A DNA stretch of 18,064 nucleotides from Nitrospinota bacterium (lineage in GTDB: Bacteria; Nitrospinota; Nitrospinia; JACRGO01): NCBI GenBank assembly GCA_016212295.1, contig JACRGO010000034.1, positions 1 through 18,064 of the forward strand. The letters run 5' to 3'. The number at the start of each line of letters is the position of its first letter. The first letter of the stretch is position 1. Below, piece by piece: positions 2,080 through 17,805 of the stretch. A program made the position numbers and the translations under genes. The notes below the pieces were generated by a model. That model did no database searches. It was not told where the DNA came from and was given only the letters and a program-made list of their open reading frames with translations.

Positions 2080-2088
2080 TAAAAATTA

Positions 2089-2129
2089 AAAGTGACTAAA
2101 GTTTGAAGTGAACTAAAGTGACTAAAGTT
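2089..2129. repeat. 15-bp direct repeat AAAGTGACTAAAGTT x2 (2089-2103, 2115-2129), related to the GTGACNA heptamer family
   Basis: Exact duplicate 15-mers with 26-bp period immediately after the plsX stop. The GTGACT-AAA motif also borders heptamer arrays at 9861, 13436 and 16492. Confidence 0.6.
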
Positions 2130-2131
2130 AT

Positions 2132-2279: not shown

Positions 2280-2335
2280 CCAAGAAGCGCTTTAAAAACT
2301 TGCGCGGAAAACGCAAATTTCTGGACGTAATATAT

Positions 2336-3316: not shown

Positions 3317-3431
3317 ATTTTTTTCAGCTTTCAGTATTCAGCAAAGGCATGGCAAAACTAAAAAAACAAATCCCTGGCCGCTGATTGCTGTGCGCTGAAA
3401 GCTTTTTGTGGTTTTTCGCGTCAAATTCCAC

Positions 3432-3437
3432 TATAAT
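3432..3437 (+). promoter_or_regulatory. Perfect TATAAT -10 hexamer upstream of the secreted-protein gene; no convincing -35
   Basis: TATAAT 35 bp upstream of the ATG at 3472. Implies the inserted gene may have its own promoter. Confidence 0.25.
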
Positions 3438-3471
3438 TTTTTTGATTTATAAACGGAGAGAAGGAAGAAAG

Positions 3472-4560: not shown

Positions 4561-4577
4561 TTTTAAAAAGAAAATAA

Positions 4578-5516: not shown

Positions 5517-5525
5517 CGGTTTATG

Positions 5526-5546
5526 ATTGACAATTGACGATTGAAC
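5526..5546. repeat. Heptamer tandem array ATTGACA-ATTGACG-ATTGAAC (contains two phased TTGAC -35-like hexamers)
   Basis: Three consecutive 7-mers read directly from the sequence. Confidence 0.7.
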
Positions 5547-5554
5547 CTTAAACA

Positions 5555-5589
5555 TTAAATCTTAAATCTTAAATCTTAAATTTTAAATC
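5555..5589. repeat. Heptamer tandem array (TTAAATC)x5 immediately upstream of the 5594 ORF
   Basis: TTAAATC TTAAATC TTAAATC TTAAATT TTAAATC. Confidence 0.85.
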
Positions 5590-5593
5590 CCTT

Positions 5594-6274
5594 ATGCTGG
5601 CAAACAGAGAAATAAAAACGAGACTGGAAAAGGCTTTCCCTATAAAACAGGCGGTGGCGCTGGCCGATGTTTTTATAGAATTCAAGGGAGACCTTGTCAA
5701 GTCTGGAGATTTCAACGAGCTTAAAAATGTAGTAAAAGAACTTGCCGAGGCTCAGAAGCGGACAGAAGTAAAAATGGGAGAACTTGCCGGCGCTCAGAAG
5801 AGGACAGAAGTAAAAATGGAAGAACTTGCCGAGGCGCAGAAACGGACGGATTATGAACTTGTCCTCTTTCGCCGCACTTTTACCTCTCAGATTGGAGGGC
5901 TTGGGGCGCGATGGGGTATGATGACGGAATCGTCGTTTCGCAACGCCATGGAGGGAATACTGTCAGAAGTTGGGTTCAAGGCCGAGAGGTTCATAGCTAA
6001 AGACAAAAAGGGGACAGTTTTCGGGTATCCGGCGGAAGTGGAGCTTGATGTTGTCGTTAAAAACGGCAAGACCCTGGTCATTGAGATTAAATCCTCGGTT
6101 AGCCGGGCGGACGCGGCCTCCTTTGACAAGAAGGTAAGCTTTTACGAGAAGGAGACACGGCGGAAGGCTAGCAGGAAGATAATTATATCTCCTTATACCG
6201 AGCCCGCGGCCCATGACGCCGCCAAAAGACTGGGGATCGAGGTTTTTACTGATATAAATGACCCGGCTTTGTAA
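5594..6274 (+). CDS. Coiled-coil-repeat plus PD-(D/E)XK-like nuclease-fold protein (DUF3782-like), inserted between fabD and fabG
   Basis: N-terminal 14-aa tandem repeats [14 protein letters not shown] x about 2.6. C-terminal [24 protein letters not shown] fits the D...(D/E)xK restriction-endonuclease-like core. No fab-pathway role. Confidence 0.55.
5738..5850 (+). repeat. In-frame 42-bp tandem repeat (about 2.6 copies) inside the 5594-6274 CDS
   Basis: Units 5738-5779 and 5780-5821 are near identical. The third unit diverges after about 27 nt. Confidence 0.85.
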
Positions 6275-6285
6275 CACAAACCCAC

Positions 6286-6340
6286 AGCGCGACGTGGCCG
6301 CAACCAAAATAAATTTTCGATGCATTCAAACGTTTCATGA
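6286..6340. repeat. Second copy (about 85% identical, one indel) of the 55-bp element seen at 2132-2185. A degraded right-arm remnant may lie at about 6406-6431
   Basis: AGCGCGACGTGGCCGCAACCAAAATAAATTTTCGATGCATTCAAACGTTTCATGA versus copy 1. Both copies lie just after a stop codon and upstream of a fab gene. Confidence 0.75.
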
Positions 6341-6418
6341 AGCCCCAAATTTCAATTGTCAGATAACAAATAAATCTCAATAACCAAAATTACAAAGAAA
6401 CAAAGAAATGAAATTGTT

Positions 6419-6447
6419 TTGGACATTCGGTAATTGTAATTTATAAT
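6419..6447 (+). promoter_or_regulatory. Candidate promoter TTGGAC-17-TATAAT upstream of fabG
   Basis: Perfect -10 TATAAT at 6442-6447 and a weak -35 at 6419-6424, in an AT-rich region about 130 bp upstream of fabG. Confidence 0.3.
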
Positions 6448-6574
6448 TTATTTGTCATTTGGGATTTCGTTTTCATTTTGGTTGAAGCGAAACCGCGCCA
6501 GGAAGCTTTGTGTCCTGGTGGCTTCGTGGCATATTTTTAATTAGAATCTTAACTGAAAGAAAGGTTTACCGAAA

Positions 6575-7318
6575 ATGAGTCTCGAAGGAAAAACCGCGTT
6601 AGTCACAGGGGCAGGCAGGGGAATCGGCAAGGCGATAGCCCTTGCCTTGGCCAAGGACGGGGCGAACGTGGCCGTGTCCGATATAGACCAGGGTTCCGCC
6701 AACCAAACCGCTGAAGAAATCAAATCCCTTGGAAGAGGCTCCATTGGATTGAAAGCGGACGTGTCCAGGTCCGAAGAGGTGGAGGGGATGTTTCAGGCAA
6801 TTGTGGACAAATTCGGCGGGGTTGATATACTGGTGAATAACGCCGGGATCACCAGGGACGGGTTACTGGTAAGAATGAAGGACGAGGATTGGAGCCTGGT
6901 CATGAAGATCAATCTGGACGGGGCCTTCTATTGCTCCAGGGCGGCCGGCAAGATCATGATGAAGCAAAGAAGAGGGGCCATAATCAACATCGCCTCAATC
7001 GTGGGGGTCATGGGAAACGCGGGCCAGGTGAATTATTCCGCGTCCAAGGCGGGCCTGATCGGCCTGACGAAATCCAGCGCACGGGAGCTTGCCTCAAGAG
7101 GGGTCACGGTAAACGCCATCGCCCCGGGTTTCATCGATACGGCAATGACACAGGCCCTGAACGATAAGGTAAAGGAAAAACTGATGGAGCAGATCCCGCT
7201 GGGCCGCTTGGGCTCCTCGGAGGACATCGCGAACGCGGTCCTCTTCCTTGCGTCTCCGGAAGCGGCCTATATAACCGGCCAGGTGCTCCATGTGAACGGG
7301 GGCATGCTGATGGCGTAG
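6575..7318 (+). CDS. fabG: 3-oxoacyl-ACP reductase (FabG)
   Basis: LEGKTALVTGAGRGIGKAIA Rossmann motif and SDR catalytic S...YSASKAG. 247 aa. Confidence 0.93.
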   Translation: MSLEGKTALVTGAGRGIGKAIALALAKDGANVAVSDIDQGSANQTAEEIKSLGRGSIGLKADVSRSEEVEGMFQAIVDKFGGVDILVNNAGITRDGLLVRMKDEDWSLVMKINLDGAFYCSRAAGKIMMKQRRGAIINIASIVGVMGNAGQVNYSASKAGLIGLTKSSARELASRGVTVNAIAPGFIDTAMTQALNDKVKEKLMEQIPLGRLGSSEDIANAVLFLASPEAAYITGQVLHVNGGMLMA

Positions 7319-7331
7319 GATGAGTTGTGAT

Positions 7332-7373
7332 GGTTCAGGGTTCAGGGTTCAGGGTTGAAGGTTGAAGGTTGAA
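7332..7373. repeat. Heptamer array (GGTTCAG)x3-(GGTTGAA)x3
   Basis: Read directly from the sequence. Imperfect inverted partner (AACCCAG)x3 at 7473-7492. Confidence 0.85.
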
Positions 7374-7472
7374 AGGGCATAATCACGGCAATATTGCATG
7401 TTTTTTTTTAGGGCATTCCACCTCGGATATAGCGCCGCTAAATAAAAATCCGCGTGGGTACGGGCTTTCTGA

Positions 7473-7492
7473 AACCCAGAACCCAGAACCAG
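7473..7492. repeat. Heptamer array AACCCAG x about 3, imperfect inverse of the 7332 array (one mismatch per unit)
   Basis: CTGAAACCCAGAACCCAGAACCAG. Confidence 0.7.
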
Positions 7493-7556
7493 TTAACGTT
7501 TACAAAAATTTTTTAACTATTAAATTAACATAAAAATCTTTTAAAGGAGGAAAAGG

Positions 7557-7787
7557 ATGGATACAGCGGAAAAAGTAAAGAATATCATCATGGAGCAGCT
7601 TGGAGTCGAAGAAGGCCAAGTGACCTCCGAGGCTTCCTTTATTGACGATCTAGGCGCGGATTCCCTGGACACAGTGGAACTCGTCATGGCCTTTGAAGAG
7701 GCATTTGACATTGAGATACCGGATGAGGAAGCGGAAAAAATCATTACGGTAAAAGACGCAGTGGACTATATTGAGAAGCATGTATAA
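7557..7787 (+). CDS. acpP: Acyl carrier protein
   Basis: 76 aa with the DSLD phosphopantetheine-attachment motif. AAGGAGG RBS. Confidence 0.95.
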
Positions 7788-9044
7788 GTGAAAGACCAAG
7801 TAAATCAAAGAAGAGTAGTGGTGACCGGGCTCGGCCTGGTGACCCCCCTGGGAATAGGGGTGAAGGAAACGTGGGAAGGAATTTGCGCTGGACGGTCCGG
7901 CATCGGACGCATCACCAAATTCGACCCGACGGATTACTCCTGCCAAATCGCCGGGGAGGTTAAGGGATTCGACCCGACCAATTACATGGACGCCAAGGAG
8001 GCCAGGAAGATGGACCCCTTCATCCATTACGCCATGGTCGCGGGCTCCTTTGCCGTGGAGGATTCCGGCCTCAAAATAACTCCTGAGAACGACACCAGGG
8101 TAGGCGTAAGCATCGGCGTGGGCATGGGCGGCCTTCCGGTTATTGAAAAATACCACGAGGTCGTCCTGGAACGTGGCCCCAGAAAAATCACGCCATTCTT
8201 CATCCCAATGCTTATCGCAAACATGGCGGCCGGCCATCTGTCGATGAAGTTCGGCGCCAAGGGGCCGAACTGTTGCAGCGCCACAGCCTGCGCCACCGGC
8301 ACCCACGCCATGGGCGATTCCTTTGAAATCATCCGCCGCGGCGACGCGGACGTCATGATCGCGGGCGGCGCTGAATCCGTTATCACGAAACTGGGGATCG
8401 GCGGGTTTTGCGCCATGAAGGCCCTGGCCGCGAAATACAACGGCCAGCCGGAAAAGGGAAGCCGCCCCTTTGACAGGGACCGCGACGGGTTTGTTATGGG
8501 TGAAGGCTCAGGCGTGATGGTGCTTGAGGAGTTGGAATCGGCCAAACGCAGAGGGGCCAGGATTTACGCGGAAATTGTGGGATACGGAATGAACGCCGAC
8601 GCCTATCACATGACCTTGCCCCCGCCGGAGGGAGAAGGCGCCGCCCGGTGCATGAACCTGGCCCTGAAAAAAGGAAATATCAGGCCGGAAGAGATTGATT
8701 ACATAAACGCCCATGGCACTGGAACAGCCGCGGACGTCCTGGAAACAAAGGCCATAAAGTCCGTCTTCGGCGGCCACGCATACAAGCTGGCGGTCAGCTC
8801 CACCAAGTCAATGACCGGACATCTCCTCGGGGCAGCCGGTGGAATAGAGGGCGTTTTTTCCGTTCTTGCCATTGAAAGGGGAGTCCTTCCCCCGACCATT
8901 AATTTAGAGAACCCCGACCAGGAATGTGACCTGGATTATGTCCCTAACCAATCCAGAAAAAAAGAAATAAATTTCGCACTTTCCAATTCCTTTGGATTCG
9001 GCGGGACCAACGCCTGCGTTATTTTCAAGAAATTTAATTCCTGA
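7788..9044 (+). CDS. fabF: 3-oxoacyl-ACP synthase II (FabF)
   Basis: GTG start abutting the acpP stop. RRVVVTGLGLVTPLG N-terminus. Cys-His-His triad context (ATACATG, HGTGT, GHLLGAAG). Confidence 0.92.
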   Translation: MKDQVNQRRVVVTGLGLVTPLGIGVKETWEGICAGRSGIGRITKFDPTDYSCQIAGEVKGFDPTNYMDAKEARKMDPFIHYAMVAGSFAVEDSGLKITPENDTRVGVSIGVGMGGLPVIEKYHEVVLERGPRKITPFFIPMLIANMAAGHLSMKFGAKGPNCCSATACATGTHAMGDSFEIIRRGDADVMIAGGAESVITKLGIGGFCAMKALAAKYNGQPEKGSRPFDRDRDGFVMGEGSGVMVLEELESAKRRGARIYAEIVGYGMNADAYHMTLPPPEGEGAARCMNLALKKGNIRPEEIDYINAHGTGTAADVLETKAIKSVFGGHAYKLAVSSTKSMTGHLLGAAGGIEGVFSVLAIERGVLPPTINLENPDQECDLDYVPNQSRKKEINFALSNSFGFGGTNACVIFKKFNS

Positions 9045-9861
9045 ATTTATCCAGTTCCCTCGTTGTTTCCTGGGCAATGATTTCCATCAAATCGCTTGAG
9101 ATTTTTGGGACAACTGAAGGGACGCATGGCATTCCGGCTGAGGAATGCTGGAGGGAGACGAACTTTCCCGACGGACACGCCTTGCACGATTCGCAGCGGG
9201 CGAGGATTTTCTTGGGCGGAAGGCCAAGCCCCTCGCCCACTTTCCGCAATTTTTCTATCTGGCCCTGAGACAAGGGATGCAGGTCCCCCAACTGCCTTGC
9301 CGCGTGGGTGATTTGCGCCACGTGCTCGATCCGCTCCAACAGATTATATGCGTCAAACACGGTGGCGCCAACTGTCAGGGACCCATGCCGTTCCAGCATG
9401 ATGGCGTCGAAATCCTTGATGTATTCCTGAATGGACTGCGGCACCTCGTCCGTTGTGGGGGTGGAATATGACGCGGTTGGAATGGATCCCAGTGTGAAGA
9501 CCACCTCCGGCAGCATGCACTTGGCCAGGGAGACTCCAGCCAACGTGAAGGCCACGCAATAGGTGGGATGAGCATGGACCACCGCCATGACGTCCGGCCT
9601 CATCCTGTAGCACTCCAGGTGCATCCTGATTTCAGACGAAGGACCGTATTGGCCGGATATCCGCGCACCCTCCATATCGATCACCACCAGGTCGCGCTCG
9701 TTAATGAAACCCTTATGGAGTTTGGTGGGAGTGGTGAGGACGCGGTTTCTGGGCAGGCGGAGGCTCACGTTGCCGTCGCTGGCCGCGATCCATCCCTTGT
9801 TGTACATCCTGCGGCAGACCTCCACTATGTCTTTTCTATGCTCTTCTTCGTTTTTTATCAT
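9034..9861 (-). CDS. Class II aldolase (FucA/RhaD/adducin-head family) with a C-terminal Cys-rich extension; BMC cargo candidate
   Basis: True start MIKNEEEHRKDIVEVCRRMYNKGW at 9861; the upstream MSLVTRHLSLISV is repeat-derived. HAHP metal-binding context. About 60-aa C-terminal tail with CESCKACPSGK...C and an amphipathic SSDLMEIIAQETTRELDKF. The 3' end overlaps the fabF 3' end convergently by 11 nt. Confidence 0.85.
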   Translation of the reverse strand: MIKNEEEHRKDIVEVCRRMYNKGWIAASDGNVSLRLPRNRVLTTPTKLHKGFINERDLVVIDMEGARISGQYGPSSEIRMHLECYRMRPDVMAVVHAHPTYCVAFTLAGVSLAKCMLPEVVFTLGSIPTASYSTPTTDEVPQSIQEYIKDFDAIMLERHGSLTVGATVFDAYNLLERIEHVAQITHAARQLGDLHPLSQGQIEKLRKVGEGLGLPPKKILARCESCKACPSGKFVSLQHSSAGMPCVPSVVPKISSDLMEIIAQETTRELDKFRN

Positions 9862-9872
9862 GACTGAAATCA

Positions 9873-9928
9873 GTGACAAGTGACGAGTAACAAGTGACAA
9901 GTGACAAGTGGCGAGTAACGAGTAAAAA
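9873..9928. repeat. Heptamer array A: GTGACAA GTGACGA GTAACAA GTGACAA GTGACAA GTGGCGA GTAACGA GTAAAAA
   Basis: Eight consecutive 7-mers. Preceded by TGACTGAAA. Confidence 0.9.
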
Positions 9929-9964
9929 ACGGAAAATGCCCCACTTGATCCATGCCTCTTGACA

Positions 9965-10237
9965 CTATCCCGAACAATTTATCTGATCCACTATAGCTGT
10001 AATGACCGAATGGACCGGCGCGGAGTCGTCTCCAAAAAGCTGCCTGGCCGCGTTCCCTTCCGGGGCAACCAGCACCGTGTCCCCTTCCCCTGCCTGCACA
10101 AAATCAACAGCCAGGAAGGAGCTTCCCGTTGGTTTCTGCTCCTGGTCCAGGGGCTGGACCACAAGGACCTTGTGCCCCTCGTAAGCCGGGTGCTTCAAGG
10201 TCGCGACGACATTTCCCAATACCTTGCAGATCAACAT
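9965..10237 (-). CDS. BMC vertex protein (EutN/PduN/CcmL family, BMC-P) copy 1
   Basis: MLICKVLGNVVATLKHPAYEGHKVLVVQP matches the PF03319 N-terminus. The ORF-track start at 10327 is an extension through the repeat array. Confidence 0.85.
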   Translation of the reverse strand: MLICKVLGNVVATLKHPAYEGHKVLVVQPLDQEQKPTGSSFLAVDFVQAGEGDTVLVAPEGNAARQLFGDDSAPVHSVITAIVDQINCSG

Positions 10238-10247
10238 TTTTTTCTTA

Positions 10248-10296
10248 GTGACCAGTGACGAGTAACGAGTGATCAGTGGCGAGTAACGAGTGACGA
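10248..10296. repeat. Heptamer array B1 (GTGACCA GTGACGA GTAACGA GTGATCA GTGGCGA GTAACGA GTGACGA)
   Basis: Seven 7-mers. Inverted partner B2 lies 24 bp away. Confidence 0.9.
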
Positions 10297-10320
10297 GTCT
10301 TAGAAGCATAGGTTTTTTAC

Positions 10321-10369
10321 TTGTCACTCGTCACTTGTCACTCGTCACTATTTATTTGTCACTCGTCAC
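10321..10369. repeat. Heptamer array B2 (TTGTCAC TCGTCAC TTGTCAC TCGTCAC TATTTAT TTGTCAC TCGTCAC), inverse of B1. The two form a palindrome of about 120 bp
   Basis: Reverse-complement orientation of B1. It contains the stop codon and last codons (..SSDE*) of the BMC-P gene at 10359-10637. Confidence 0.9.
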
Positions 10370-10637
10370 TGCTCCTTGCGTCTATATTGTCAACAATCCC
10401 GACGATACCGGCGTCTATGGGACTGAAGGTGTCCGGCAGAGTCAGGGCCGCCTCGCGTCCGACCACATAAGAGACGGTCTCGCCGATTCCGGCCTGTTGG
10501 GCGTCCACCATCACAAGAGGCTCTCCCTTGGGTTTTCGCTCGTGGTCCACCGGCTGCACCAGCAGGAGCTTGATTCCCTCCAGGCTTGGATGCTTCACCG
10601 TGGCCACCACCCGTCCTATTACTTTTCCTATGTGCAT
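10359..10637 (-). CDS. BMC vertex protein (EutN/PduN family, BMC-P) copy 2
   Basis: MHIGKVIGRVVATVKHPSLEGIKLLLVQPV. GGAG RBS. C-terminal tail encoded by repeat array B2. Confidence 0.85.
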   Translation of the reverse strand: MHIGKVIGRVVATVKHPSLEGIKLLLVQPVDHERKPKGEPLVMVDAQQAGIGETVSYVVGREAALTLPDTFSPIDAGIVGIVDNIDARSSDE

Positions 10638-10772
10638 GAAAAAACTCCAGCCACAAACTTTATTCAGTTTTCCCTTAATATATCAATAACTACGTTGACA
10701 ATTGAATTTATTGCGCCACTTTTTAGTTTGCCTATTTCAGAAATAATCAGTTTATTGTGAATGGTATTAATA

Positions 10773-10994
10773 CTACCGAGCCTTTTGAAAATGTTGCCAT
10801 GCCTCATCCTCCTCTGGACGGTTCCAATCTTCCGCGAGGGCTGTTTCGCTTAACAAGGCTTCCTCATTTACATGAATTAAAGGTTCCTCATCAAGAATCG
10901 TGACTAATGCACGGCAGGATGAAGACAGTTTAATCGGTTCAGACAACTTAATATTGCCTTTTAGATCAATTGTTGCTTCAAGTATGCGGACCAT
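10773..10994 (-). CDS. Small AF2212/AbrB-like, antitoxin-like protein (73 aa), orphan
   Basis: True start MVRILEATIDLKGNIKLSEPIKL...ALVTILDEE with AGGAGG 7 nt upstream; the ORF-track TTG start translates the RBS. C-terminal LSETALAEDWNRPEEDEAW resembles the tails of type II antitoxins that pair with PIN toxins. No toxin gene is adjacent. Confidence 0.4.
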   Translation of the reverse strand: MVRILEATIDLKGNIKLSEPIKLSSSCRALVTILDEEPLIHVNEEALLSETALAEDWNRPEEDEAWQHFQKAR

Positions 10995-11066
10995 ATTAGG
11001 CCTCCTTTTTTTCAAATAAATATGCTTTTATTTAATGAAATCAAATATACACATTTCTTGATAGAG

Positions 11067-11078
11067 TAGCAATTGCTA
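11067..11078. promoter_or_regulatory. Perfect 12-bp palindrome TAGCAATTGCTA flanked by inverted TGATAG/CTATCA hexamers; candidate operator
   Basis: About 70 bp upstream of the 10994 start codon on the - strand. Confidence 0.3.
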
Positions 11079-11084
11079 TCACAA

Positions 11085-11630
11085 TTAGAGCAATTTAAAA
11101 TTCAAATCCGCATGGGGGGCGGGGATGATCTCCTTTGCAACCAGGGTCCCCCCTTCCATTAAATTCCTGATCCCTGCCTCTATCGCGGCTTCCACCTCGG
11201 AGATGTCGCCGGTCAGGGTGTAAAACGATTTTCCGCCAAGGCCGTTGGCAAGGCGCAGCTCGATGAGGTCCACCTTCGCCGCCTTCACCGCCGTGTCGGC
11301 TGAAACAATGGCCGAGGCCACTGAGAAGGTCTCCACTATCCCCAATGCCGCAAGTCCCGCCACCTCGGTGCATGCCTCCATTGCCGGGATGACCTGCCCA
11401 TGTACCTGGGGCAGAAAAAGTTCGTCCACCACAAGTTCTGCCCCTATGCTTATCCCCTCCCTGACGGCTTCCTCGACCGAGGCAACGTCGCCGCGCACAA
11501 GGACCATGTACTTTCCGGGGCACACGGTCCTTGCTTCCATGAGCTTCACCGGGGCCTTTTTCATCATGGCGTCGCAAACCCGTATTCCCCTGGCAACGCT
11601 TCTTAGTTCTATTAATCCTATAGCTTCCAT
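11085..11630 (-). CDS. Tandem BMC-domain shell protein (BMC-T, PduT-like)
   Basis: Two PF00936-like halves: MEAIGLIELRSVARGIRVCDAMMKKA... and LAALGIVETFSVASAIVSADTAVKAAKV.... 181 aa. Confidence 0.8.
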   Translation of the reverse strand: MEAIGLIELRSVARGIRVCDAMMKKAPVKLMEARTVCPGKYMVLVRGDVASVEEAVREGISIGAELVVDELFLPQVHGQVIPAMEACTEVAGLAALGIVETFSVASAIVSADTAVKAAKVDLIELRLANGLGGKSFYTLTGDISEVEAAIEAGIRNLMEGGTLVAKEIIPAPHADLNFKLL

Positions 11631-11638
11631 TAATTATC

Positions 11639-11672
11639 CACGTTATCAGTTCACGGTTTACGGTTCACGGTT
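11639..11672. repeat. Heptamer array CACGTTA TCAGTT CACGGTT TACGGTT CACGGTT; left boundary of the four-helix-bundle cassette
   Basis: Inverse partner AACCGTG array at 12042-12069. Contains the stop codon of the 11665-12015 gene. Confidence 0.85.
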
Positions 11673-12015
11673 TTTTCAATGAATCATGCAAGGCTTGCAA
11701 CATTTTTGATATGGATTTCAACTCATTAATCAAACCTTTTGCGTCACTGTCGGAAAATACGTTAATTTCCCTTGAAATATAAACTTGTGTCCGCAGTTCC
11801 GCCGCCGAGCCTTTTGCAATGTTTATAAACCTTTGAAAATCTGGAACACTGTTTCTTTCGCACCCTTCCGCGATATTCGATGGAATAGATACGGATGAGC
11901 GCAACATTTGATCTTTCAGCCCATAATCACGGCAATCTTTTAATAATTTATAGAGGGTTACTGTCAGTCTGCAAGATTTTTTCCAAACTTCTAAATTCTC
12001 AAAGGAAGCGCTCAT
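11665..12015 (-). CDS. Four-helix-bundle protein (23S rRNA intervening-sequence protein / Avd-like family, TIGR02436-type), intact copy
   Basis: LEVWKKS...LKDQMLRSSVSIPSNIAEG..R.S..DFQRFINIAKGSAAELRTQVYIS matches the family consensus. Flanked by inverted CACGGTT/AACCGTG heptamer arrays. Confidence 0.85.
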   Translation of the reverse strand: MSASFENLEVWKKSCRLTVTLYKLLKDCRDYGLKDQMLRSSVSIPSNIAEGCERNSVPDFQRFINIAKGSAAELRTQVYISREINVFSDSDAKGLINELKSISKMLQALHDSLKKP

Positions 12016-12041
12016 AACCTTTTTCTATTTTCTGCTTCACC

Positions 12042-12069
12042 AACCGTGAACTGTGAACCGTGAACCGTA
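12042..12069. repeat. Heptamer array AACCGTG AACTGTG AACCGTG AACCGTA; right boundary of the four-helix-bundle cassette
   Basis: Reverse complement of the 11639-11672 array. Confidence 0.85.
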
Positions 12070-12090
12070 AACAATTTTCTTATTTTATGT

Positions 12091-13425
12091 CTACCTGCTT
12101 TCAATTCCCACATACCTCCCGTTCACCTCCGCCACTGTCCCGTCCATGGAGGCGTGGACTCTGGCGCCCATTTTTCCCTCCGGTATCTCGCCCACCAATT
12201 GGCCTTGCTTCACCTTGTCCCCTGTCTTCACCACAGGGACGGCGGCCGCGCCGATATGCTGCCTCAAGGGAATTTTTACATTGGTGAAGGGAAAATCCCT
12301 TTCTTCCCATTCGGGGTGGACGTCGTATTCCTTTAGACCCAGCCTTTGAATCAACCGGTCCTTGGGGATTTTCCTGTAGTCGCGGTATTGGTCCTGGGCC
12401 AGGCCGCTTCGTGAATGCGGGTTCTTTATCCCTGCCCCGGCTAGGCGTCCCTTGAATTCCCTGAAAACAACGCGGGGAGAAAGGGCCATGGGACAGGCAT
12501 AGAGGTCGCATACCCCGCATTCACAACAGAGAAAGGCGCGGGTTATTGTGTCGGTGTCAAGGTCCCGATCATAGTCTATTACCCGCATAATCTTGTGCGG
12601 CTCAAGACTATGCCCCTGGAGCCAGCGGGGACAAAAATCAGTGCAGTAGCGGCACTGCTCGCAAATTGATTTGGACATGCGCGCCTCTGTGGCCACTGTC
12701 CTGCTTCTTCGCATTACGTAAGGGTGGTCCTTTGGGAGCACGATGATCCCGGAGGTGGTCTTCGTGACCGGCTCCCCGCAATCCCCTGCCAACCGTCCCA
12801 TCATGGGTCCCCCCACCAGAATAACGTAATCCTCTATCCTGGCCCCGCCGCACAGCGCTATGAGGTCCTTGAAAGAAACGCCGATAGGGACCCGCAGGAC
12901 CCTTGGCCAGTTGACCTCTCCGCATACCGTTATCCGCTGGCGGACCACGGGTTCGCCGTGGAAGGCGCGGTGGATGTTGAGCAGGGTGTTGACGTTATTC
13001 ACCAAGACGCCCACATGCAAGGGAAGGCCGCCTTCGGGAATTATTCTTCCAGCGGCGTCCAGGACCAAAACATGCTCATCGCCCGCCGGGTAATAATTCC
13101 CCATTTCATGCAGCCTGATATTTTTTTCGGAGGCTGCTGCCTGGGAAAGCGATTTTACCGCTTCGTGATAATGGGCCTTGACAGCGATAATCCCCTGTCC
13201 GGCACCAACTGCCTCCATCACGAGCTTGACGCCGGAGACGATCTCGTCCGCCGCCGTCTCCATGGTCCTCTGGTCCGTGCAGAGAAGGGGCTCGCATTCC
13301 GCTCCATTGGCGATCACTATCTCAGCCCTGGCGTTGATCTTTACGTGGGTTGGAAACCCAGCCCCTCCGGCGCCCACCACTCCGGCGTTTTTAACTTTTT
13401 CTATTAATTGTTCGCGAAAACGCAT
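12091..13425 (-). CDS. PduS/RnfC-like Fe-S flavoprotein oxidoreductase (BMC-associated)
   Basis: True start MRFREQLIEKVKNAGVVGAGGAGFPTHVK with the RnfC/NqrA-type GAGGAGFP motif. Two 4Fe-4S motifs, CEQCRYCTDFCP and CCECGVCDLYACP. The ORF-track start at 13521 runs through repeat array C (LLVTRHLSLVT). Confidence 0.85.
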   Translation of the reverse strand: MRFREQLIEKVKNAGVVGAGGAGFPTHVKINARAEIVIANGAECEPLLCTDQRTMETAADEIVSGVKLVMEAVGAGQGIIAVKAHYHEAVKSLSQAAASEKNIRLHEMGNYYPAGDEHVLVLDAAGRIIPEGGLPLHVGVLVNNVNTLLNIHRAFHGEPVVRQRITVCGEVNWPRVLRVPIGVSFKDLIALCGGARIEDYVILVGGPMMGRLAGDCGEPVTKTTSGIIVLPKDHPYVMRRSRTVATEARMSKSICEQCRYCTDFCPRWLQGHSLEPHKIMRVIDYDRDLDTDTITRAFLCCECGVCDLYACPMALSPRVVFREFKGRLAGAGIKNPHSRSGLAQDQYRDYRKIPKDRLIQRLGLKEYDVHPEWEERDFPFTNVKIPLRQHIGAAAVPVVKTGDKVKQGQLVGEIPEGKMGARVHASMDGTVAEVNGRYVGIESR

Positions 13426-13435
13426 TTGAATGATA

Positions 13436-13498
13436 GTGACTGAAAGATAGTGACAAGTGACAAGTGACAAGTGACGAGTGACAAGTAAAAAGTAAAAA
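13436..13498. repeat. Heptamer array C (GTGACTG..GTGACAA x3 GTGACGA GTGACAA GTAAAAA GTAAAAA)
   Basis: Inverted partner D at 13571-13619, 72 bp away. Confidence 0.9.
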
Positions 13499-13570
13499 CT
13501 TATAGCTCTTTGGGCGGACAAAAAAAATCAATGGCCAGGGATCAGTACCGGCTCCTGGATTCTTTTCTAC

Positions 13571-13619
13571 TCGTCACTCGTCACTTGTCACTCGTTACTG
13601 CTTCTCGGTAACTCGTCAC
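13571..13619. repeat. Heptamer array D (TCGTCAC TCGTCAC TTGTCAC TCGTTAC ... TCGTCAC), inverse of C
   Basis: Ends 4 bp from the aldehyde dehydrogenase stop codon. Confidence 0.9.
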
Positions 13620-13623
13620 TGCT

Positions 13624-15114
13624 TCAAACAATTCTAAACCTGTCCTTCAAAGTACAGCGGCGCTCCCTTGTGAAGTGGACGGCGGTGGTCAGGCCCTCTC
13701 CGGTGGGGCTGGCTATGGTGAAGGACGTATACCCTTCCCCGGTGAAGCCCAATCCGGCGTATGAAGGTCCGTTCTTCACGAAGATGGAGGTGTTGATTTC
13801 CCGCGCCATGCGGCTCAGCTTGTCGATGTTTCTGGAGTGCATCACCGCCGTGTGGCCGAACCCGTGCTCCACCTCCTTGGCCAGGTCAATGGCGGCGTCC
13901 GCGTCCTTGACCCTAACCAACGGAATCAAAGGCATGAGAAGTTCCATCTGGACAAAGGGATGGCCGGCGTCCGTCTCGGCGATGATCAACCGGATATCCT
14001 CCCCGACGTTGACGCCGATCTCCTTCAGGATAACCGCCGCGTCCTTTCCCACGAATTTCTTGTTAACCACTCCGTGGGAGCCGTCAACCGGCGGCTCCTG
14101 GATAATAAGCTTCCGCATCTGGCGGATTTGCTGCTGGTTCAACTCGTAGCAGCCGTTTCGCTTGAGGGCGGATTTCAGGGAATCCGCTATTGAGGCCACT
14201 GCTATGATCTCCTTTTCCACTATGCAGACCATGTTGTTGTCGAATGACGCGCCGTTTACTATGTCAACCGCCGCGTTTTCGATGTCCGCTGTCTCGTCCA
14301 CCACCACAGGCGGATTACCTGGTCCGGCGGCGATCACCTTCTTTCCTGAATTCATGGCGGCCTTGACCACCGCGGGTCCGCCGGTGACCACCAATAACCG
14401 TATGCCGGGATGCTCCATGAGTTCCCTGGCCGATTGAATGGTCGGCTCTGATATAGTGGTTATGAGGTCCCTGGGACCGCCCGCCTTGGCTATGGCCCTG
14501 TTGAGGAGATCGACTGAATAAATGGAGATTTTTTTAGCGGTCGGGTGGGCGTTGAACACCACCGCGTTTCCCCCGGCCAGCATGCTCACCGCGTTGTTGA
14601 AGATCGTCGCGAAGGGATTTGTGCATGGGGTGATGGACCCTATGACGCCGTAAGGGGCGCGTTCCACCAACGTGAGTCCGTTATCGCCCGTGTAGCTGAC
14701 TGGTTGCAGTATTTCCAGTCCAGGCGTTTTTTCTATTGACAACCTGTTTTTCAGCGCCTTGTCCTTGACCCGGCCCATGCCTGTCTCTGACACCGCCATC
14801 TCCGCGAGTTTTTGCGCCTCTTCCAGGGCGGTTGATCGCATGGAGGCGATGATCCCGCCACGAAGGGACAAGGGCATACTGCTAAGTTCCGCGAAGGCCT
14901 TCGCGGCGGCAAGGACCGCTGAATTAATATCGCCGAACACTCCAAGCCCCTCGCCCTTGCTTTCCTTAGCGGATGAGGACGGACAGCCGTGAGGCGGATT
15001 GAACGCCGCCTGGGGCTTCGAGGGACCTGGAGCGCTAATGGTCTGCCCGCTCCATATCCTTTCAGCAACCCTTCTCACTATTGAGGCAATCTGGTCTTCT
15101 GTAAGTTGTGTCAT
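13624..15114 (-). CDS. CoA-acylating aldehyde dehydrogenase (PduP/EutE-like BMC core enzyme) with N-terminal encapsulation-peptide-like helix
   Basis: 496 aa. ALDH catalytic region ...MVCIVEKE.../...GEGYTSFTIASPTGEG. N-terminal amphipathic EDQIASIVRRVAERI followed by a Pro/Ser/Gly linker before GVFGDINSAV. Confidence 0.88.
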   Translation of the reverse strand: MTQLTEDQIASIVRRVAERIWSGQTISAPGPSKPQAAFNPPHGCPSSSAKESKGEGLGVFGDINSAVLAAAKAFAELSSMPLSLRGGIIASMRSTALEEAQKLAEMAVSETGMGRVKDKALKNRLSIEKTPGLEILQPVSYTGDNGLTLVERAPYGVIGSITPCTNPFATIFNNAVSMLAGGNAVVFNAHPTAKKISIYSVDLLNRAIAKAGGPRDLITTISEPTIQSARELMEHPGIRLLVVTGGPAVVKAAMNSGKKVIAAGPGNPPVVVDETADIENAAVDIVNGASFDNNMVCIVEKEIIAVASIADSLKSALKRNGCYELNQQQIRQMRKLIIQEPPVDGSHGVVNKKFVGKDAAVILKEIGVNVGEDIRLIIAETDAGHPFVQMELLMPLIPLVRVKDADAAIDLAKEVEHGFGHTAVMHSRNIDKLSRMAREINTSIFVKNGPSYAGLGFTGEGYTSFTIASPTGEGLTTAVHFTRERRCTLKDRFRIV

Positions 15115-15121
15115 TGTCTAA

Positions 15122-15409
15122 TTACTTCTTAAACACCAACTTATCGTCGATGTCCCATTGGTCCACTATGGCCATTATGACAGCGTCTACTGGTTTATTA
15201 TTGGTTATGTCCGTTTGCCTCGCCGAACTTCCAGTGGCGTAGAGCACTATCTCTCCCTGGCCCGCGCCGACGGAGTCGGCCGCCACCACATAGTTCTGGC
15301 CGGCCTTCCCCCTGGAATCAACGCCAGCCACAAGCTGGAGCTTGAGGCCCTCCAGCTTAGGGTCTTTCTGGGAGGCGACAACCGTCCCAACCACTTTTCC
15401 GAATAACAT
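15122..15409 (-). CDS. BMC vertex protein (EutN/PduN family, BMC-P) copy 3
   Basis: [34 protein letters not shown] 8 nt upstream. The ORF-track start at 15445 would overlap the BMC-H gene. Confidence 0.85.
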
Positions 15410-15419
15410 GAGCGGTCTC

Positions 15420-15710
15420 CTATTCCGTAGCGTTCGAGCGCCCAAGCGGGAGGGCCTTGTCGATATTGAGGTGCGGCCTTGGAATCACGTGGACGGACAC
15501 CAACTGCCCGACCTTCTCAGCGGCGCGGGAGCCGGCCTCGGTGGCGGCCTTGACCGCCGCGACGTCTCCCCTCACTATGGCGGTGACGTAGCCGCCGCCG
15601 GTTTTTTCGTATCCGACCAACTCAACCTTGGCCGCCTTGACCATGGCGTCCGACGCCTCAACCATGGCGGTGAAACCCCGCGTTTCTATCATTCCCAATG
15701 CTTCAGCCAT
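15420..15710 (-). CDS. BMC-H hexameric shell protein (PduA/EutM-like)
   Basis: [56 protein letters not shown] is a canonical PF00936 sequence. GGAGG RBS. Confidence 0.93.
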
Positions 15711-15768
15711 AAAAAAACCTCCTTATAAAAAGTTAAATTAATAAAATTCGTAACTACTCATGTTATCC

Positions 15769-15839
15769 GGTTCAGGGTTCAGGGTTCAGGGTTCAGAGTT
15801 CCCGGTTGAAAGCTTTGTGGCCTTTGTGCCTTTGTGGTG
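15769..15839. repeat. Heptamer array (GGTTCAG)x4-like followed by the octamer-like repeat CTTTGTGG CCTTTGTG CCTTTGTG in the BMC-T/BMC-H intergenic gap
   Basis: Same GGTTCAG unit as at 7332. Confidence 0.8.
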
Positions 15840-15845
15840 AAAAAA

Positions 15846-16472
15846 TTATTTTTTCTTCAACGCCACTCCCTCCAAACCGGAAAGCGCGGTGATCGCGGCC
15901 TCCGCCGCTGAGTCTATTTCCGATTCCGACCCGGACATATAAAGCCTCCCATAGGCGCCGAAGGGACGCACCTCAACAAGTTTTACATTCGCCGCCTTTT
16001 CCGCCTCGTTCGCGCCGAAGATAACGTATCCGGCAGGCTCAGTCTCCAGTATGAAGAGCGATTCGCCCGGAAGGATCATGGACCCGCTCCGGTTACGATT
16101 GATAAGTTGGCATTGATACGCCTCCATCGCGCGGATGATCTGGTTTGAGACGATGTCCGGCTTGATCCGGTCCGACTCCTTGATCTCCAGGTAGTCCAGG
16201 ATGGACTGTCCCGCCAGCCTCACCTCCCCCTTGTCGTGCTCGTGGACTTCCAATACCCCGTAGGCCCGCTCCACGATCTGGACCGCCGGCTGGACCTTGG
16301 TGGCCTTCAAGGCCACATCCAGGACCTTGTTGATTGCGAGTCCGGGCGCTATTTCAACAAAGAGCGACGCCACTCCAGGCACCGGGAGGAACCCCTTGGC
16401 CGTGGACCCTATATAAGAGGCCAGTTGAGCTTGAAGACTGTCCAGAAAAACATAAGTGCGCAGGGTTATCAT
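15846..16472 (-). CDS. Permuted tandem BMC-domain shell protein (BMC-T, PduB/EutL-like)
   Basis: 208 aa with two permuted-BMC halves ([19 protein letters not shown]... and ...[30 protein letters not shown]...) paralleling the EutL architecture. GGAGG RBS. Confidence 0.7.
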
Positions 16473-16491
16473 TGTTTAATCCTCCATTTTA

Positions 16492-16528
16492 AGTGACTAT
16501 AAAACCAGTGACCAGTGACGAGTAATTA
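16492..16528. repeat. Heptamer array E (GTGACTA...GTGACCA GTGACGA GTAATTA)
   Basis: Overlaps the stop codon of the 16526-16807 gene. Inverse partner F at 16827-16847. Confidence 0.8.
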
Positions 16529-16807
16529 GTTTGTGCTCCTCAAGGAGCGTTGTAAGCCAATAATCATTTTTGAAATTTCGTCCAGTTCTTCCAATAAACT
16601 ATTTTCAATTCGCGACTCCAGGAGTTGTAAATTTTTACTTATGATGATTTGTGTTTCCAGTTCCGCTATATTAGATGGAATGGATACGGCCGCTCGCCGC
16701 ATTTGGGATAGCAGGCCAAATTTCTCTTCCGAAGGAAAGGAAGCAATCTGTTCCACAAAGCTGATTGACCTTTTCCATACCTCCAGGCGCTTATGCGGCT
16801 TTCCCAT
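16526..16807 (-). CDS. Four-helix-bundle protein (Avd-like / 23S-IVS family), second copy with an internal deletion of about 20 aa; possibly degenerate
   Basis: MGKPHKRLEVWKRS...FGLLSQMRRAAVSIPSNIAE|LETQIIIS lacks the G..R.S..DF..F..IA.GS segment present in the copy at 11665-12015. True ATG at 16807 with GGAGGG RBS; the track start at 16840 is repeat-derived. Confidence 0.65.
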   Translation of the reverse strand: MGKPHKRLEVWKRSISFVEQIASFPSEEKFGLLSQMRRAAVSIPSNIAELETQIIISKNLQLLESRIENSLLEELDEISKMIIGLQRSLRSTN

Positions 16808-16826
16808 GAAATCCCTCCCTTTTAAC

Positions 16827-16847
16827 TCGTCACTTGTCACTCGTCAC
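16827..16847. repeat. Heptamer array F (TCGTCAC TTGTCAC TCGTCAC), inverse of E
   Basis: Read directly from the sequence. Confidence 0.85.
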
Positions 16848-16853
16848 TATCTT

Positions 16854-17723
16854 CTAATACTGTTTCGCCACGATCGCGTCCTCTATCTTCCTCGTGTTGG
16901 CCAGGGTGCGCTGCCGGTTCGTCATGCCGATCGTTATATACAGCACGTCAATGATGCTTGACTGCGCGATCCTCGAGGCAAGGGCCTCGCTCCGGTATTT
17001 GGTCTCCTTGGAAGAGGTCACGAGGACCACGTCCGCTACCTTTGCCAGGGGCGAAAGGGAATTATTAGTGATTGCTATCGCCTTGACCCCGTTTTTCCTG
17101 GCGACTTCTATTGTGTCTATGGGGTCCCTGGTGCTCCCGGAATGGGAGATGGCAAGGACTAGGTCGCCCTTTCTCAATAGCGCGGCCTCCATCATCTGGA
17201 GGTGGCTGTCGTTTTGATAGGAGCACCAAAGCCCAAGCCTCAGGAATTTATTAAAGGCGTCAAAAAGGATGGGGGTGGAGGTCCCGACCCCGATTATCAG
17301 AATTTTTTTCGCCTTGCTCAACAGCTTCACGGCTTCCCCGACGGCCTCCGGCTTCAGCGCCTCCAGGGTGCTTTGCAGGGTCTCGATGTTGGCGGAAAAG
17401 ACCTTGCGGATGATGGTGGCCGTCCCGTCCCTTTCGCTCACGTCCTCATGTATGGCGTGGTGGATGGGAGATACAAGGTCCCGCGCCAAATTAATCTTCA
17501 GGTCCTGAAAGCCCCTGTATCCCATGGTCCTGCAGAAACGGATCACGGTCGCCTCGCTGGCCCCGGCGCCGATTGCCACTTCGCTCACCGACTGGTCAAG
17601 AACGCCCTGCGCGTTGCCGAGCGCGTATTCCGCCACTTTTTTCTCCGCCGAGTGAAGTGACGGCAGCATGCCCCTCAGTCTGGCAAGACAATTTTCCCTT
17701 GGGGCCGCTTGGGTCTTCAGCAT
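16854..17723 (-). CDS. RpiR/MurR-family transcriptional regulator (HTH plus SIS sugar-phosphate-binding domain)
   Basis: LHSAEKKVAEYAL...SEATVIRFCRTMGYRGFQDLK is an RpiR-type HTH. The SIS domain shows IGVGTS...ISHSGST. ATG at 17723 preferred; the track GTG at 17738 overlaps the -10 box. Confidence 0.85.
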   Translation of the reverse strand: MLKTQAAPRENCLARLRGMLPSLHSAEKKVAEYALGNAQGVLDQSVSEVAIGAGASEATVIRFCRTMGYRGFQDLKINLARDLVSPIHHAIHEDVSERDGTATIIRKVFSANIETLQSTLEALKPEAVGEAVKLLSKAKKILIIGVGTSTPILFDAFNKFLRLGLWCSYQNDSHLQMMEAALLRKGDLVLAISHSGSTRDPIDTIEVARKNGVKAIAITNNSLSPLAKVADVVLVTSSKETKYRSEALASRIAQSSIIDVLYITIGMTNRQRTLANTRKIEDAIVAKQY

Positions 17724-17729: not shown

Positions 17730-17757
17730 ATTATACACGGAAAAAATTTCTTGTCAA
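17730..17757 (-). promoter_or_regulatory. Strong sigma70-like promoter TTGACA-16-TATAAT for the RpiR gene; the ATG lies 6 nt after the -10, so the mRNA is probably leaderless
   Basis: - strand TTGACA corresponds to 17752-17757 and TATAAT to 17730-17735. Confidence 0.55.
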
Positions 17758-17764
17758 GTTTTTT

Positions 17765-17805
17765 TTCATGAAATTTTTTTTCATGAAGTAATATTTCATC
17801 ATGAA
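17765..17805. promoter_or_regulatory. Three TTCATGAA-type palindromes (17765-17772, 17780-17787, 17795-17805) between divergent promoters; candidate operator set
   Basis: Two perfect 8-bp palindromes, each preceded by a T8 run and spaced 15 bp apart, plus TTCATCATGAA. A similar TTCATCATG overlaps the RpiR start codon. Confidence 0.4.

Follow-up and report, generated by a model that had tools for sequence, protein, structure and literature searches.

The window studied here, an 18,064-nt stretch (contig JACRGO010000034.1 of the Nitrospinota bacterium assembly GCA_016212295.1), likely carries a self-contained operon, under RpiR control, that encodes a catabolic bacterial microcompartment (BMC) of the HO/SPU5 family (HO, Haliangium ochraceum), in a variant with a class II aldolase. 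The encoded organelle would probably split a sugar phosphate and oxidise the resulting aldehyde. The original prediction had detected the operon correctly and mislabelled its family, naming the PVM (Planctomycetes-Verrucomicrobia) type. Because all SPU5 features match the locus as they are described in the prose of the BMC catalogue, and the tested features of the PVM and PVM-like types did not fit it, the locus was filed under HO/SPU5.

Gene identities were taken from Pfam and NCBIfam scans of the open reading frames (ORFs) of the window, which holds two convergent blocks: a fatty-acid synthesis (fab) cluster on the plus strand (1-9044) and the BMC operon on the minus strand (17723-9034). The latter runs in the order rpiR, BMC-Tdp, BMC-H, BMC-P1, acylating aldehyde dehydrogenase (ALDH), PduS-like flavoprotein, PduT-like BMC-T, BMC-P2, BMC-P3 and class II aldolase (Table 1). 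All ten genes previously named for 9034-17723 were recovered with Pfam on the minus strand; three small inserted genes had been overlooked. The ten BMC genes are full length, with intact catalytic and pore motifs, and the upper boundary at 17723 was confirmed as the ATG of a 289-aa RpiR, equal in length to the RpiR of relatives. Since heptamer repeats of the spacers translate as protein ('LVTRHLSLVT'), the mechanical ORF starts lie too far upstream for four genes, whose likely starts are 15409 (BMC-P1), 13425 (PduS-like), 10237 (BMC-P3) and 9861 (aldolase).

The shell set has a single copy each of BMC-H, BMC-Tdp and PduT-like BMC-T, together with three BMC-P proteins. The gene earlier described as a permuted BMC-T does encode a BMC protein, and specifically the double-stacking BMC-Tdp (NCBIfam CcmP 273 bits), an orthologue of H. 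ochraceum HO-5816 (311 bits, 70% identity). It presumably forms a gated large pore, and its VERAYG motif is one to which we assume a role in pore gating. BMC-H is 83% identical to HO-5815 and has the standard KAAK and PRPH interface motifs. The best PDB match of BMC-P1 was the HO BMC-P chain of 5V74 (107 bits, 60% identity); BMC-P2 and BMC-P3 matched generic EutN/CcmL structures only. The count of three BMC-P paralogues stood, EutN_CcmL being matched three times (1e-26 to 1e-29); they are mutually 45-47% identical, and the BMC-P2 orthologue always adjoins BMC-P3, here and in all related loci. In the PduT-like BMC-T, also termed BMC-T(SE), the pore motif C37-P-G-K aligns onto the CPGK of PduT (3PAC), and its cysteine is presumed to be a 4Fe-4S ligand in the pore.

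The cargo complement comprises the class II aldolase with a C-terminal tail, the CoA-acylating ALDH with an N-terminal amphipathic peptide, and the PduS-like protein, a metabolosome NADH dehydrogenase (MNdh). Pfam and NCBIfam revealed no gene in the window for a phosphotransacylase (PTAC), an alcohol dehydrogenase, a kinase, an isomerase or a transporter, and neither a diol dehydratase nor EutBC nor a glycyl radical enzyme occurs among its ORFs. These scans bear out what had been said about the window, namely that it lacks PTAC, alcohol dehydrogenase and kinase genes as well as any classical pdu/eut/grp signature enzyme. With the ALDH and a PF00596 aldolase both present, the view of an aldehyde-oxidising metabolosome whose only candidate signature enzyme is the class II aldolase also held.

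When GTDB genomes were scanned with an alignment of BMC-Tdp, 564 relatives were obtained; the comparisons below cover the best 80 loci among them, and gene orders of fetched loci were mapped by tblastn. The nearest BMC-Tdp relatives, at 82% identity, belong to Nitrospinota metagenome-assembled genomes (MAGs), and candidate-division MAGs are also among the nearest loci; GCA_029261755.1 and GCA_054034195.1 are the nearest MAGs. The full order rpiR-Tdp-H-P1-ALDH-PduS-T-P2-P3-aldolase was found in L003, L005, L006, L007, L009 and L084, while the same ten-gene module is split between L001 and L085 and cut by the contig end in L004. Its Tdp-H-P1-ALDH-T backbone is common to about 50 HO-type loci of Myxococcota and other Proteobacteria MAGs; in Myxococcota, HO type I has the backbone by itself, whereas in HO type II P2-P3 come after it, with an aldolase in some loci and none in others. 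Ten loci have an RpiB-DeoC fusion, the signature of SPU3, before the backbone, and these come from Chloroflexota, Holophagaceae, Acidimicrobiia (Acidimicrobiaceae, Ilumatobacter) and Woeseiaceae.

The ALDH phylogeny fits the PVM label poorly. In a neighbour-joining tree built from the loci fetched here, and containing no PVM or reference SPU5 sequences, the window ALDH nests in a Nitrospinota-type clade beside the clades of SPU3 and PduS-containing loci and of HO loci; this Nitrospinota-type clade is far from the GRM3 outgroup.

Table 1. Features of the BMC operon and its surroundings in the window
Feature	Positions	Strand	Evidence or detail
Class II (FucA-like) aldolase	9034-9861	-	Pfam Aldolase_II (PF00596) 1e-49
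BMC-P3, third pentamer paralogue	9965-10237	-	Pfam EutN_CcmL 4e-26
BMC-P2, second pentamer paralogue	10359-10637	-	Pfam EutN_CcmL 7e-28
73-aa ORF, between PduT-like gene and BMC-P2	10773-10994	-	no Pfam match
PduT-like BMC-T(SE), 181 aa, tandem-BMC trimer	11085-11630	-	two BMC domains, 4e-46
Full-length 23S rRNA intervening-sequence protein (IVP) / four-helix-bundle gene, between PduS and BMC-T	11665-12015	-	PF05635 3e-35; NF008912 154 bits, above cut-off
PduS-like flavoprotein (MNdh)	12091-13425	-	Complex1_51K+SLBB+Fer4_17+RnfC_N, 1e-46
ALDH-PduS spacer, inverted heptamer arrays AGTGACR + complement	13426-13623	-	repeat families D1, D2, D4, I9, I13
Acylating ALDH, EutE-type	13624-15114	-	Pfam Aldedh 2e-36; NCBIfam NF011927 681 bits vs cut-off 403
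BMC-P1, pentamer vertex protein, HO-5814 orthologue	15122-15409	-	Pfam EutN_CcmL 9e-29
BMC-H, 96 aa, sole hexamer shell protein	15420-15710	-	Pfam BMC 3e-31
BMC-Tdp, 208 aa, permuted tandem-BMC trimer, CsoS1D/CcmP type	15846-16472	-	NCBIfam CcmP 273 bits
Truncated 23S rRNA IVP / four-helix-bundle gene, between rpiR and shell genes	16526-16807	-	PF05635 2e-18, two pieces
rpiR, RpiR/MurR-family regulator, 289 aa	16854-17723	-	Pfam HTH_6 8e-20, SIS 1e-22
Sigma-70 promoter TTGACA-16-TATAAT	17730-17757	-	12/12 consensus match
Operator-like sites ATGWA-N7-TTSAY, three tandem 17-bp	17753-17799	-	15-nt phasing; last overlaps -35
Further heptamer arrays	9862-9964, 10238-10358, 15755-15826; fab cluster 7328-7373

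Regulator, promoter and operator-like repeats

The regulator at the head of the operon combines HTH_6, a DNA-binding domain, with SIS, which binds sugar phosphates, so that its description as a sugar-phosphate-type regulator held; it reached no NCBIfam equivalog cut-off. It had also been regarded as an atypical sensor for a microcompartment. This did not apply within the subtype, as rpiR heads every complete locus of the module.

The rpiR ATG is situated 6 nt past the -10 hexamer of the promoter, which suggests that the rpiR mRNA is leaderless or near-leaderless; the same -35/-10/ATG geometry was found in L001, L003, L005, L007 and L084. Phased palindromic operator-like sites with TTCATGAA cores abut the -35 hexamer. 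The pattern ATGWA-N7-TTSAY gave 5 strand-hits versus 0.30 expected in the window, and it occurred nowhere else in it. When nine loci were aligned with the -35 as anchor, the consensus ATGaAat.tTACTtCAT-N13-ATGaAA.A.tACTTGACa-N17-tAnAAT was obtained, and the position of this operator/promoter block was kept in the nine related loci despite differing upstream genes. Judged from the alignment, the block is a phylogenetic footprint. Since a search of the window revealed no second copy of the operator-like site before the shell genes, a single autoregulated operon is the simplest model.

NAD+ recycling, the aldolase and its candidate substrates

The ALDH scored 476 bits against the BMC ALDH of R. 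palustris (5JFL) and retains the catalytic motif FDNNMVC at residues 291-297. At its N-terminus, a helix motif conserved across loci, (L/I)xExQIxxIVxRVxxRL, precedes a low-complexity linker of Pro/Ser/Gly. In one related locus (L043, 8303-10178), genes for a NotI-type restriction endonuclease and a D12-class methyltransferase are situated between the ALDH and PduS genes.

The PduS-like protein exceeded the cut-off of TIGR01945 (269 bits) and has the GAGGAGFP site for FMN/NADH as well as two 4Fe-4S cysteine motifs at residues 255 and 300. A 'permuted' PduS was suspected from its C-terminal RnfC_N domain and rejected: the published MNdh order is PF01512, PF10531 (SLBB), 4Fe-4S dicluster and PF13375 (RnfC sandwich) (PMC11626177), and the order in the window, with RnfC_N last, is the same. 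PduS homologues are MNdh proteins which, in many metabolosomes without B12 enzymes, are paired with Cys-pore PduT homologues (BMC-T(SE)), and the CPGK of PduT has been described as a 4Fe-4S pore motif (PMC11626177). The pair exports electrons across the shell and thereby restores the NAD+ that the ALDH requires (Sutter et al. 2024, PMC11626177), which applies especially to 361 loci without an alcohol dehydrogenase (PMC11626177). The combination of a PduS-like protein with no B12 enzyme had been called noteworthy; it is explained by the MNdh domain order and the Cys-pore PduT partner (PMC11626177).

The related loci followed the same rule. A CP[GS]K pore motif was found in 12/12 loci with PduS (11 fetched loci and the window) and in 0/54 loci without PduS, all HO-type loci among them, where the pore position was mostly Ser, Glu, His, Thr or Gln; this linkage of the pore cysteine to PduS is clean comparative support for the MNdh/BMC-T(SE) rule. 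The module in the window shares with the published one the four-domain order, a CP(G/S)K PduT homologue as partner, the presence of an ALDH and the absence of an alcohol dehydrogenase. It differs in the IVP gene between the partner genes, found in the window only, and in no structural respect. By analogy with the published module (PMC11626177), we infer that NAD+ is recycled through MNdh and BMC-T(SE) with electron transfer through the shell.

The class II aldolase is the presumed signature enzyme, being the sole candidate in the operon. Residues for phosphate binding, zinc binding and catalysis (D29, G30, N31 and S33, and the Zn/catalytic residues E77, H96, H98 and H159) were invariant in 68 homologues. 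A C-terminal extension of about 60 aa carries the motif C223-xx-C226-N-A-C229, a linker and a terminal amphipathic helix. CxxCxxC was present in 120/120 best homologues (49-90% identical, 253-345 aa), including homologues from Myxococcota (Minicystis), with the consensus P-C-(D/N/E)-x-C-N-A-C and a median of 48 residues ahead of the terminal helix; 50 of the 120 have a fourth cysteine near the motif. The CxxCNAC tail motif may be a Zn or Fe-S site. Literature searches gave no specific report of a Cys motif in the aldolases of BMCs; Aussignargues 2015 tabulated 5.5% Cys in aldolase linkers and reported no conserved sequence. An AlphaFold2 model of the aldolase (mean pLDDT 88) was confident for the catalytic domain and for the helix 256-274, and poor for residues 221-250. 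The conservation of the terminal helix and its presence in the model support its presumed role as an encapsulation peptide.

Homology and comparative genomics together support well a predicted scheme in which aldolase, ALDH and the pair of MNdh and BMC-T(SE) act in series under RpiR. A sugar phosphate would bind the SIS domain, RpiR would leave the operators that overlap the -35, and the whole operon would be transcribed from the strong promoter. Inside the shell, the aldolase would cleave a ketose-1-phosphate to dihydroxyacetone phosphate (DHAP) and a short aldehyde, for which lactaldehyde, glycolaldehyde and acetaldehyde are candidates, and the ALDH would convert the aldehyde, CoA and NAD+ to acyl-CoA and NADH. 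The NADH would be re-oxidised by MNdh, with electrons moving via both of its 4Fe-4S clusters to a further one in the BMC-T(SE) pore and from there to the outside, so that this pair would stand in for the missing alcohol dehydrogenase. As no phosphotransacylase was found in the window or beside related loci, the operon does not explain how CoA is recycled; acyl-CoA and CoA might be exchanged through the BMC-Tdp pore, or a distant pduL might serve.

Several points weigh against this scheme and the family placement. The aldolase scored below every NCBIfam equivalog cut-off (OtnC 122 bits vs 250, FucA_Meth 115 vs 250), and identity is no more than about 30% to its best PDB matches, namely the OtnC-type 6VOQ/6VOP, FucA and 6BTD, the last of which was deposited as a fuculose phosphate aldolase. 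FucA Tyr113 and Phe131, which we take to be aldehyde-pocket positions, are replaced by the invariant Leu117 and Pro135. Because of these low identities, sub-threshold scores and replaced residues, the substrate and the retro-aldol chemistry stand as a prediction by homology. Of the earlier FucA/RhaD-type assignment, the PF00596 class II aldolase stood and the FucA/RhaD part was not supported, with every such cut-off missed and Tyr113/Phe131 absent. For the putative encapsulation peptides, support from hydrophobic-moment shuffles was weak (p about 0.05 for one and 0.19 for the other). The repeats upstream of rpiR are candidate RpiR binding sites by virtue of conservation alone. Three insertions and long hairpin spacers possibly hamper expression of the operon. 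As to the family, the 'SPU5' label derives from the prose of the catalogue rather than from typing with hidden Markov models, the SPU signature domains PF01791 (DeoC-type) and PF02502 (RpiB) were found in no ORF of the window, and the ALDH tree has the composition given above.

Two alternatives concern what the PF00596 protein does. According to the first, which we consider improbable, the operon serves a 'DHAP shunt', in which 5-deoxy-ribulose-1-phosphate or 5-methylthioribulose-1-phosphate, which radical-SAM and polyamine chemistry leave as by-products, would yield DHAP plus acetaldehyde or (methylthio)acetaldehyde on cleavage, with the shell confining the aldehyde. Acetaldehyde is also the product of DeoC, the enzyme used by sister loci of the HO/SPU group to which the ALDH belongs, and 6BTD, which we take to be the 5-deoxyribulose-1-phosphate aldolase DrdA, is among the three best PDB matches. 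Moreover, the closest named relatives are Nitrospinota-type MAGs, and Nitrospinota are largely autotrophic, which makes a sugar-scavenging role less obvious. Against this, no mtnK/mtnA-like kinase or isomerase was found in the window or the flanks of related loci, 6BTD at about 30% identity is no better a match than FucA or OtnC, and the proposal is pure inference.

Equally improbable in our view is that the PF00596 protein is a decarboxylase, epimerase or dehydratase (OtnC-, AraD- or MtnB-like) and that the aldehyde is supplied by an enzyme encoded elsewhere. The best NCBIfam and PDB matches are indeed OtnC-type 3-oxo-tetronate-4-phosphate decarboxylases (121.8 bits; 6VOQ, 6VOP), and HO type I main loci also have no signature enzyme (PMC8217296). 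All these scores are far under their cut-offs, however, while neither the zinc ligands nor the general base Glu vary, the protein ends in an encapsulation-type tail, it is the only operon-conserved candidate for the aldehyde source, and the catalogue treats such proteins as aldolases (PMC8217296).

Taken together, the observations could describe a PTAC-less HO-type metabolosome, also without an alcohol dehydrogenase, in a deep-branching Nitrospinota-related lineage, using a non-fucose ketose-1-phosphate (for example 5-deoxy- or 5-methylthio-pentulose-1-phosphate), with electronic NAD+ recycling, metal or redox control of the aldolase via CxxCNAC and an RpiR-operator switch. We hold this joint picture to be unlikely in its entirety; if true, this compact version could be key to the native function of the HO/SPU5 microcompartments.

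Insertions, spacers and neighbouring genes

Two of the three inserted genes encode IVP/four-helix-bundle proteins. The truncated copy has inverted heptamer arrays on its two sides (16502-16530 and 16812-16853), and the full-length copy likewise lies between inverted GTTCACG arrays (11642-11672 and 12042-12072), an enclosure that resembles an rRNA intervening-sequence stem. Both are missing from all related BMC loci, and they look like small mobile cassettes landing in spacer hairpins. The third insertion, the 73-aa ORF, weakly matched a RelN antitoxin (E = 0.027) and had 642 homologous cluster representatives (E <= 1e-3), mostly of 70-75 aa. No homologue occurs in related BMC loci and no partner toxin was visible beside the ORF, which is possibly antitoxin-like and not a BMC component.

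Tandem heptamer arrays (AGTGACR and its complement, GTTCACG, GGTTCAG), arranged as inverted pairs, fill the intergenic spacers; we presume that they resemble the STRR repeats of cyanobacteria. RNA of the ALDH-PduS spacer is predicted to form a long hairpin (-81.3 kcal/mol, z = -7.5 vs shuffles), and the BMC-P3 gene is bracketed by 60-nt inverted heptamer arrays (repeat I1, 9871-9930 / 10312-10371, 85% complementary). Similar arrays fill the spacers of L084 and L001. The hairpins may act in RNA stability or as RNase III elements, dividing the transcript of the operon into segments.

These features raise the question of whether the operon is decaying or silent, a horizontally acquired module broken up by insertions and hairpin spacers. 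The three inserted genes would fit this, as would the additional 1-1.7 kb or so of spacer compared with relatives, the foreign DEAD helicase and T5orf172 genes that split the module in the closest MAG and the absence of a BMC locus beside fabF in a relative whose FabF is 94% identical. We nevertheless regard decay as quite improbable: the ten genes are full length with intact catalytic and pore motifs, the promoter matches the consensus perfectly, and the operator has been conserved. Because the heptamer hairpins are found in the fab operon of the window too, as well as in spacers of L084 and L001, they are a genome-wide habit and not damage. In that closest MAG (GCA_054034195.1; L001 8500-11355, L085 1-4850) the operon is interrupted between P2 and P3 by an insert that includes DEAD-box helicase-like and T5orf172/MUG113 genes, with P3 and the aldolase on another contig.

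The content of flanks beyond the window was judged from the loci of relatives. In L003 and L084, the 10 kb around the module contained no PTAC, alcohol dehydrogenase, kinase, isomerase or transporter gene, and the genes next to it in L005, L006, L007 and L009 are unrelated housekeeping or mobile genes according to Pfam. Flank genes of related loci included lysA/dapF, rplU/rpmA, O-antigen ligase, SAH hydrolase, cytochrome c, ffh and Mrr, and crude ORF clustering of the 80 loci found no flank gene common to the Nitrospinota-type loci. Neither a classical PDU/EUT placement nor a nearby dehydratase or glycyl radical enzyme emerged, the 10-kb flanks of the relatives being unrelated. Since flanks differ in every genome and L087, whose FabF is 94% identical to that of the window, has no BMC locus beside fabF, the BMC module behaves, on this comparison, as a portable unit. 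FabF is 94% identical to one metagenome contig, 80-86% to a few others and <=69% to named Nitrospinae/Nitrospirae MAGs; because of this drop, the host is by FabF comparison a poorly sampled Nitrospinota-related lineage.

The fab block reads yceD-like, plsX, fabH, an SdrD-B-like 391-aa ORF, fabD, a PDDEXK_10/DUF3782 gene, fabG, acpP and fabF. Two of its members look foreign: the SdrD-B/CarboxypepD_reg-like ORF between fabH and fabD (3385-4560), and the nuclease-like PDDEXK_10/DUF3782 gene (5594-6274), which contains an in-frame 42-nt tandem repeat of 2.7 copies (5736-5847) and in whose place L087 has a response-regulator gene. A 26-nt inverted repeat, 96% complementary, spans the plsX-fabH junction (2139-2164 / 2248-2273); one arm with adjacent sequence (2132-2185) recurs at 6286-6340, downstream of the PDDEXK gene, with 79-90% identity. 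The inverted repeat could act as a regulatory site or represent a miniature repeat element. In the window, neither Rfam at the gathering threshold nor a tRNA scan gave a match.

Comparison with known microcompartment types

The PVM assignment did not survive. PVM loci have two BMC-H and three BMC-P, no BMC-Tdp, a regulator of the DeoR type, genes for acetate kinase and PTAC, and a dehydrogenase of the LDH/MDH type, and are restricted to Planctomycetes and Verrucomicrobia; PVM-like loci occur in Firmicutes and have a GRM5-like ALDH, PTAC and BMC-P. With the PVM locus of Planctopirus limnophila the window shares the class II aldolase with a C-terminal peptide, three BMC-P and an acylating ALDH. 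It differs in its HO-like shell with one BMC-H and a BMC-Tdp, in RpiR instead of DeoR, in the absence of PTAC, acetate kinase and dehydrogenase, and in its main-locus MNdh/BMC-T(SE) pair, which PVM has mostly in satellites. None of the PVM ancillary genes (DeoR, PTAC, acetate kinase, LDH/MDH-type) was found in the window or the flanks of relatives. From PVM-like loci the locus is set apart by the lack of PTAC, by the HO-like shell and by relatives that are not Firmicutes. The combination of a BMC-P triplet with an aldolase, taken earlier as the PVM hallmark, also occurs in HO, SPU5, ACI, MIC3, MIC4 and MUF2, and the PF00596 aldolase is found in at least seven BMC types besides PVM (PMC8217296).

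It is therefore very improbable that the operon is a PVM or PVM-like system in which an L-fuculose-1-phosphate or L-rhamnulose-1-phosphate aldolase supplies lactaldehyde, processed as in Planctopirus limnophila: the C-terminally extended PF00596 aldolase, the three BMC-P, the JGI annotation of homologues as 'L-fuculose-phosphate aldolase' and lactaldehyde as a still possible product are outweighed by shell proteins closest to those of HO, by the differences in gene content and taxonomic range just listed, and by an aldolase under all FucA/RhaD cut-offs without FucA Tyr113 and Phe131.

SPU3 loci share the backbone Tdp-H-P1-ALDH-T-P2-P3 and have a neighbouring ALDH clade. They differ in an RpiB-DeoC fusion (PF02502+PF01791) upstream of Tdp, versus the class II aldolase at the 3' end in the window, and have neither PduS nor the pore cysteine.

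Much closer is SPU5. Its catalogue entry describes an ALDH with an N-terminal encapsulation peptide that is closest to the HO ALDH, and no RpiB (PMC8217296, Supplementary Data 2); a PF00596 aldolase with a C-terminal encapsulation peptide in 5/8 loci; a BMC-P triplet, one standard BMC-H and PduS-associated Cys-pore BMC-Ts; and a CsoS1D-clade BMC-Tdp in 4/8 loci (PMC8217296). HO-5816 itself is listed as Tdp_apricot_S1Dlike beside the Tdp_melon_S1Dlike entries of SPU5 (PMC8217296), and Axen 2014 had noted 'SPU-like' loci with a class II aldolase in place of DeoC. The window has the ALDH N-terminal peptide, the aldolase with C-terminal peptide replacing RpiB (PF02502), the triplet, the single BMC-H, a PduS gene adjoining the Cys-pore BMC-T, an HO-5816-related BMC-Tdp and an HO-related ALDH, and needs no satellite. 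It differs in taxonomy, the eight catalogued loci being from Proteobacteria plus one Chloroflexi, and the window and its relatives from Nitrospinota-related or candidate-division MAGs; RpiR and the exact gene order are unmentioned in the catalogue. A text search of the Sutter 2021 catalogue revealed no 'Nitrospin*' entry, and literature searches for BMCs in Nitrospinota found nothing specific.

The organelle type is already known, as is the MNdh/BMC-T(SE) module, and as genome annotation the locus is otherwise ordinary. It extends the HO/SPU5 family to Nitrospinota-related lineages. Structural and engineering work on microcompartments has the H. ochraceum shell as its main model, and the function of the HO organelle "remains enigmatic" (Sutter 2021, PMC8217296). 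One operon that holds the shell, a candidate aldolase, ALDH, the NAD+-recycling pair, a regulator and a recognisable operator provides an experimental handle on HO-type function, and RpiR and the aldolase, used as probes for sugar phosphates, could reveal the substrate of the HO/SPU5 family.

With HO the operon shares the Tdp-H-P-ALDH-T order, shell proteins at 70% (Tdp), 83% (H) and 60% (P1) identity, the BMC-P triplet and the aldolase clade, in which Minicystis homologues have the CxxCxxC tail. The differences are that HO BMC-Ts have no pore cysteine and the HO main locus is normally without PduS, whereas the window has both; that HO type I has two BMC-P together with an aldolase in a satellite; that HO has a second, satellite BMC-Tdp; and that the HO-type loci fetched have no RpiR.

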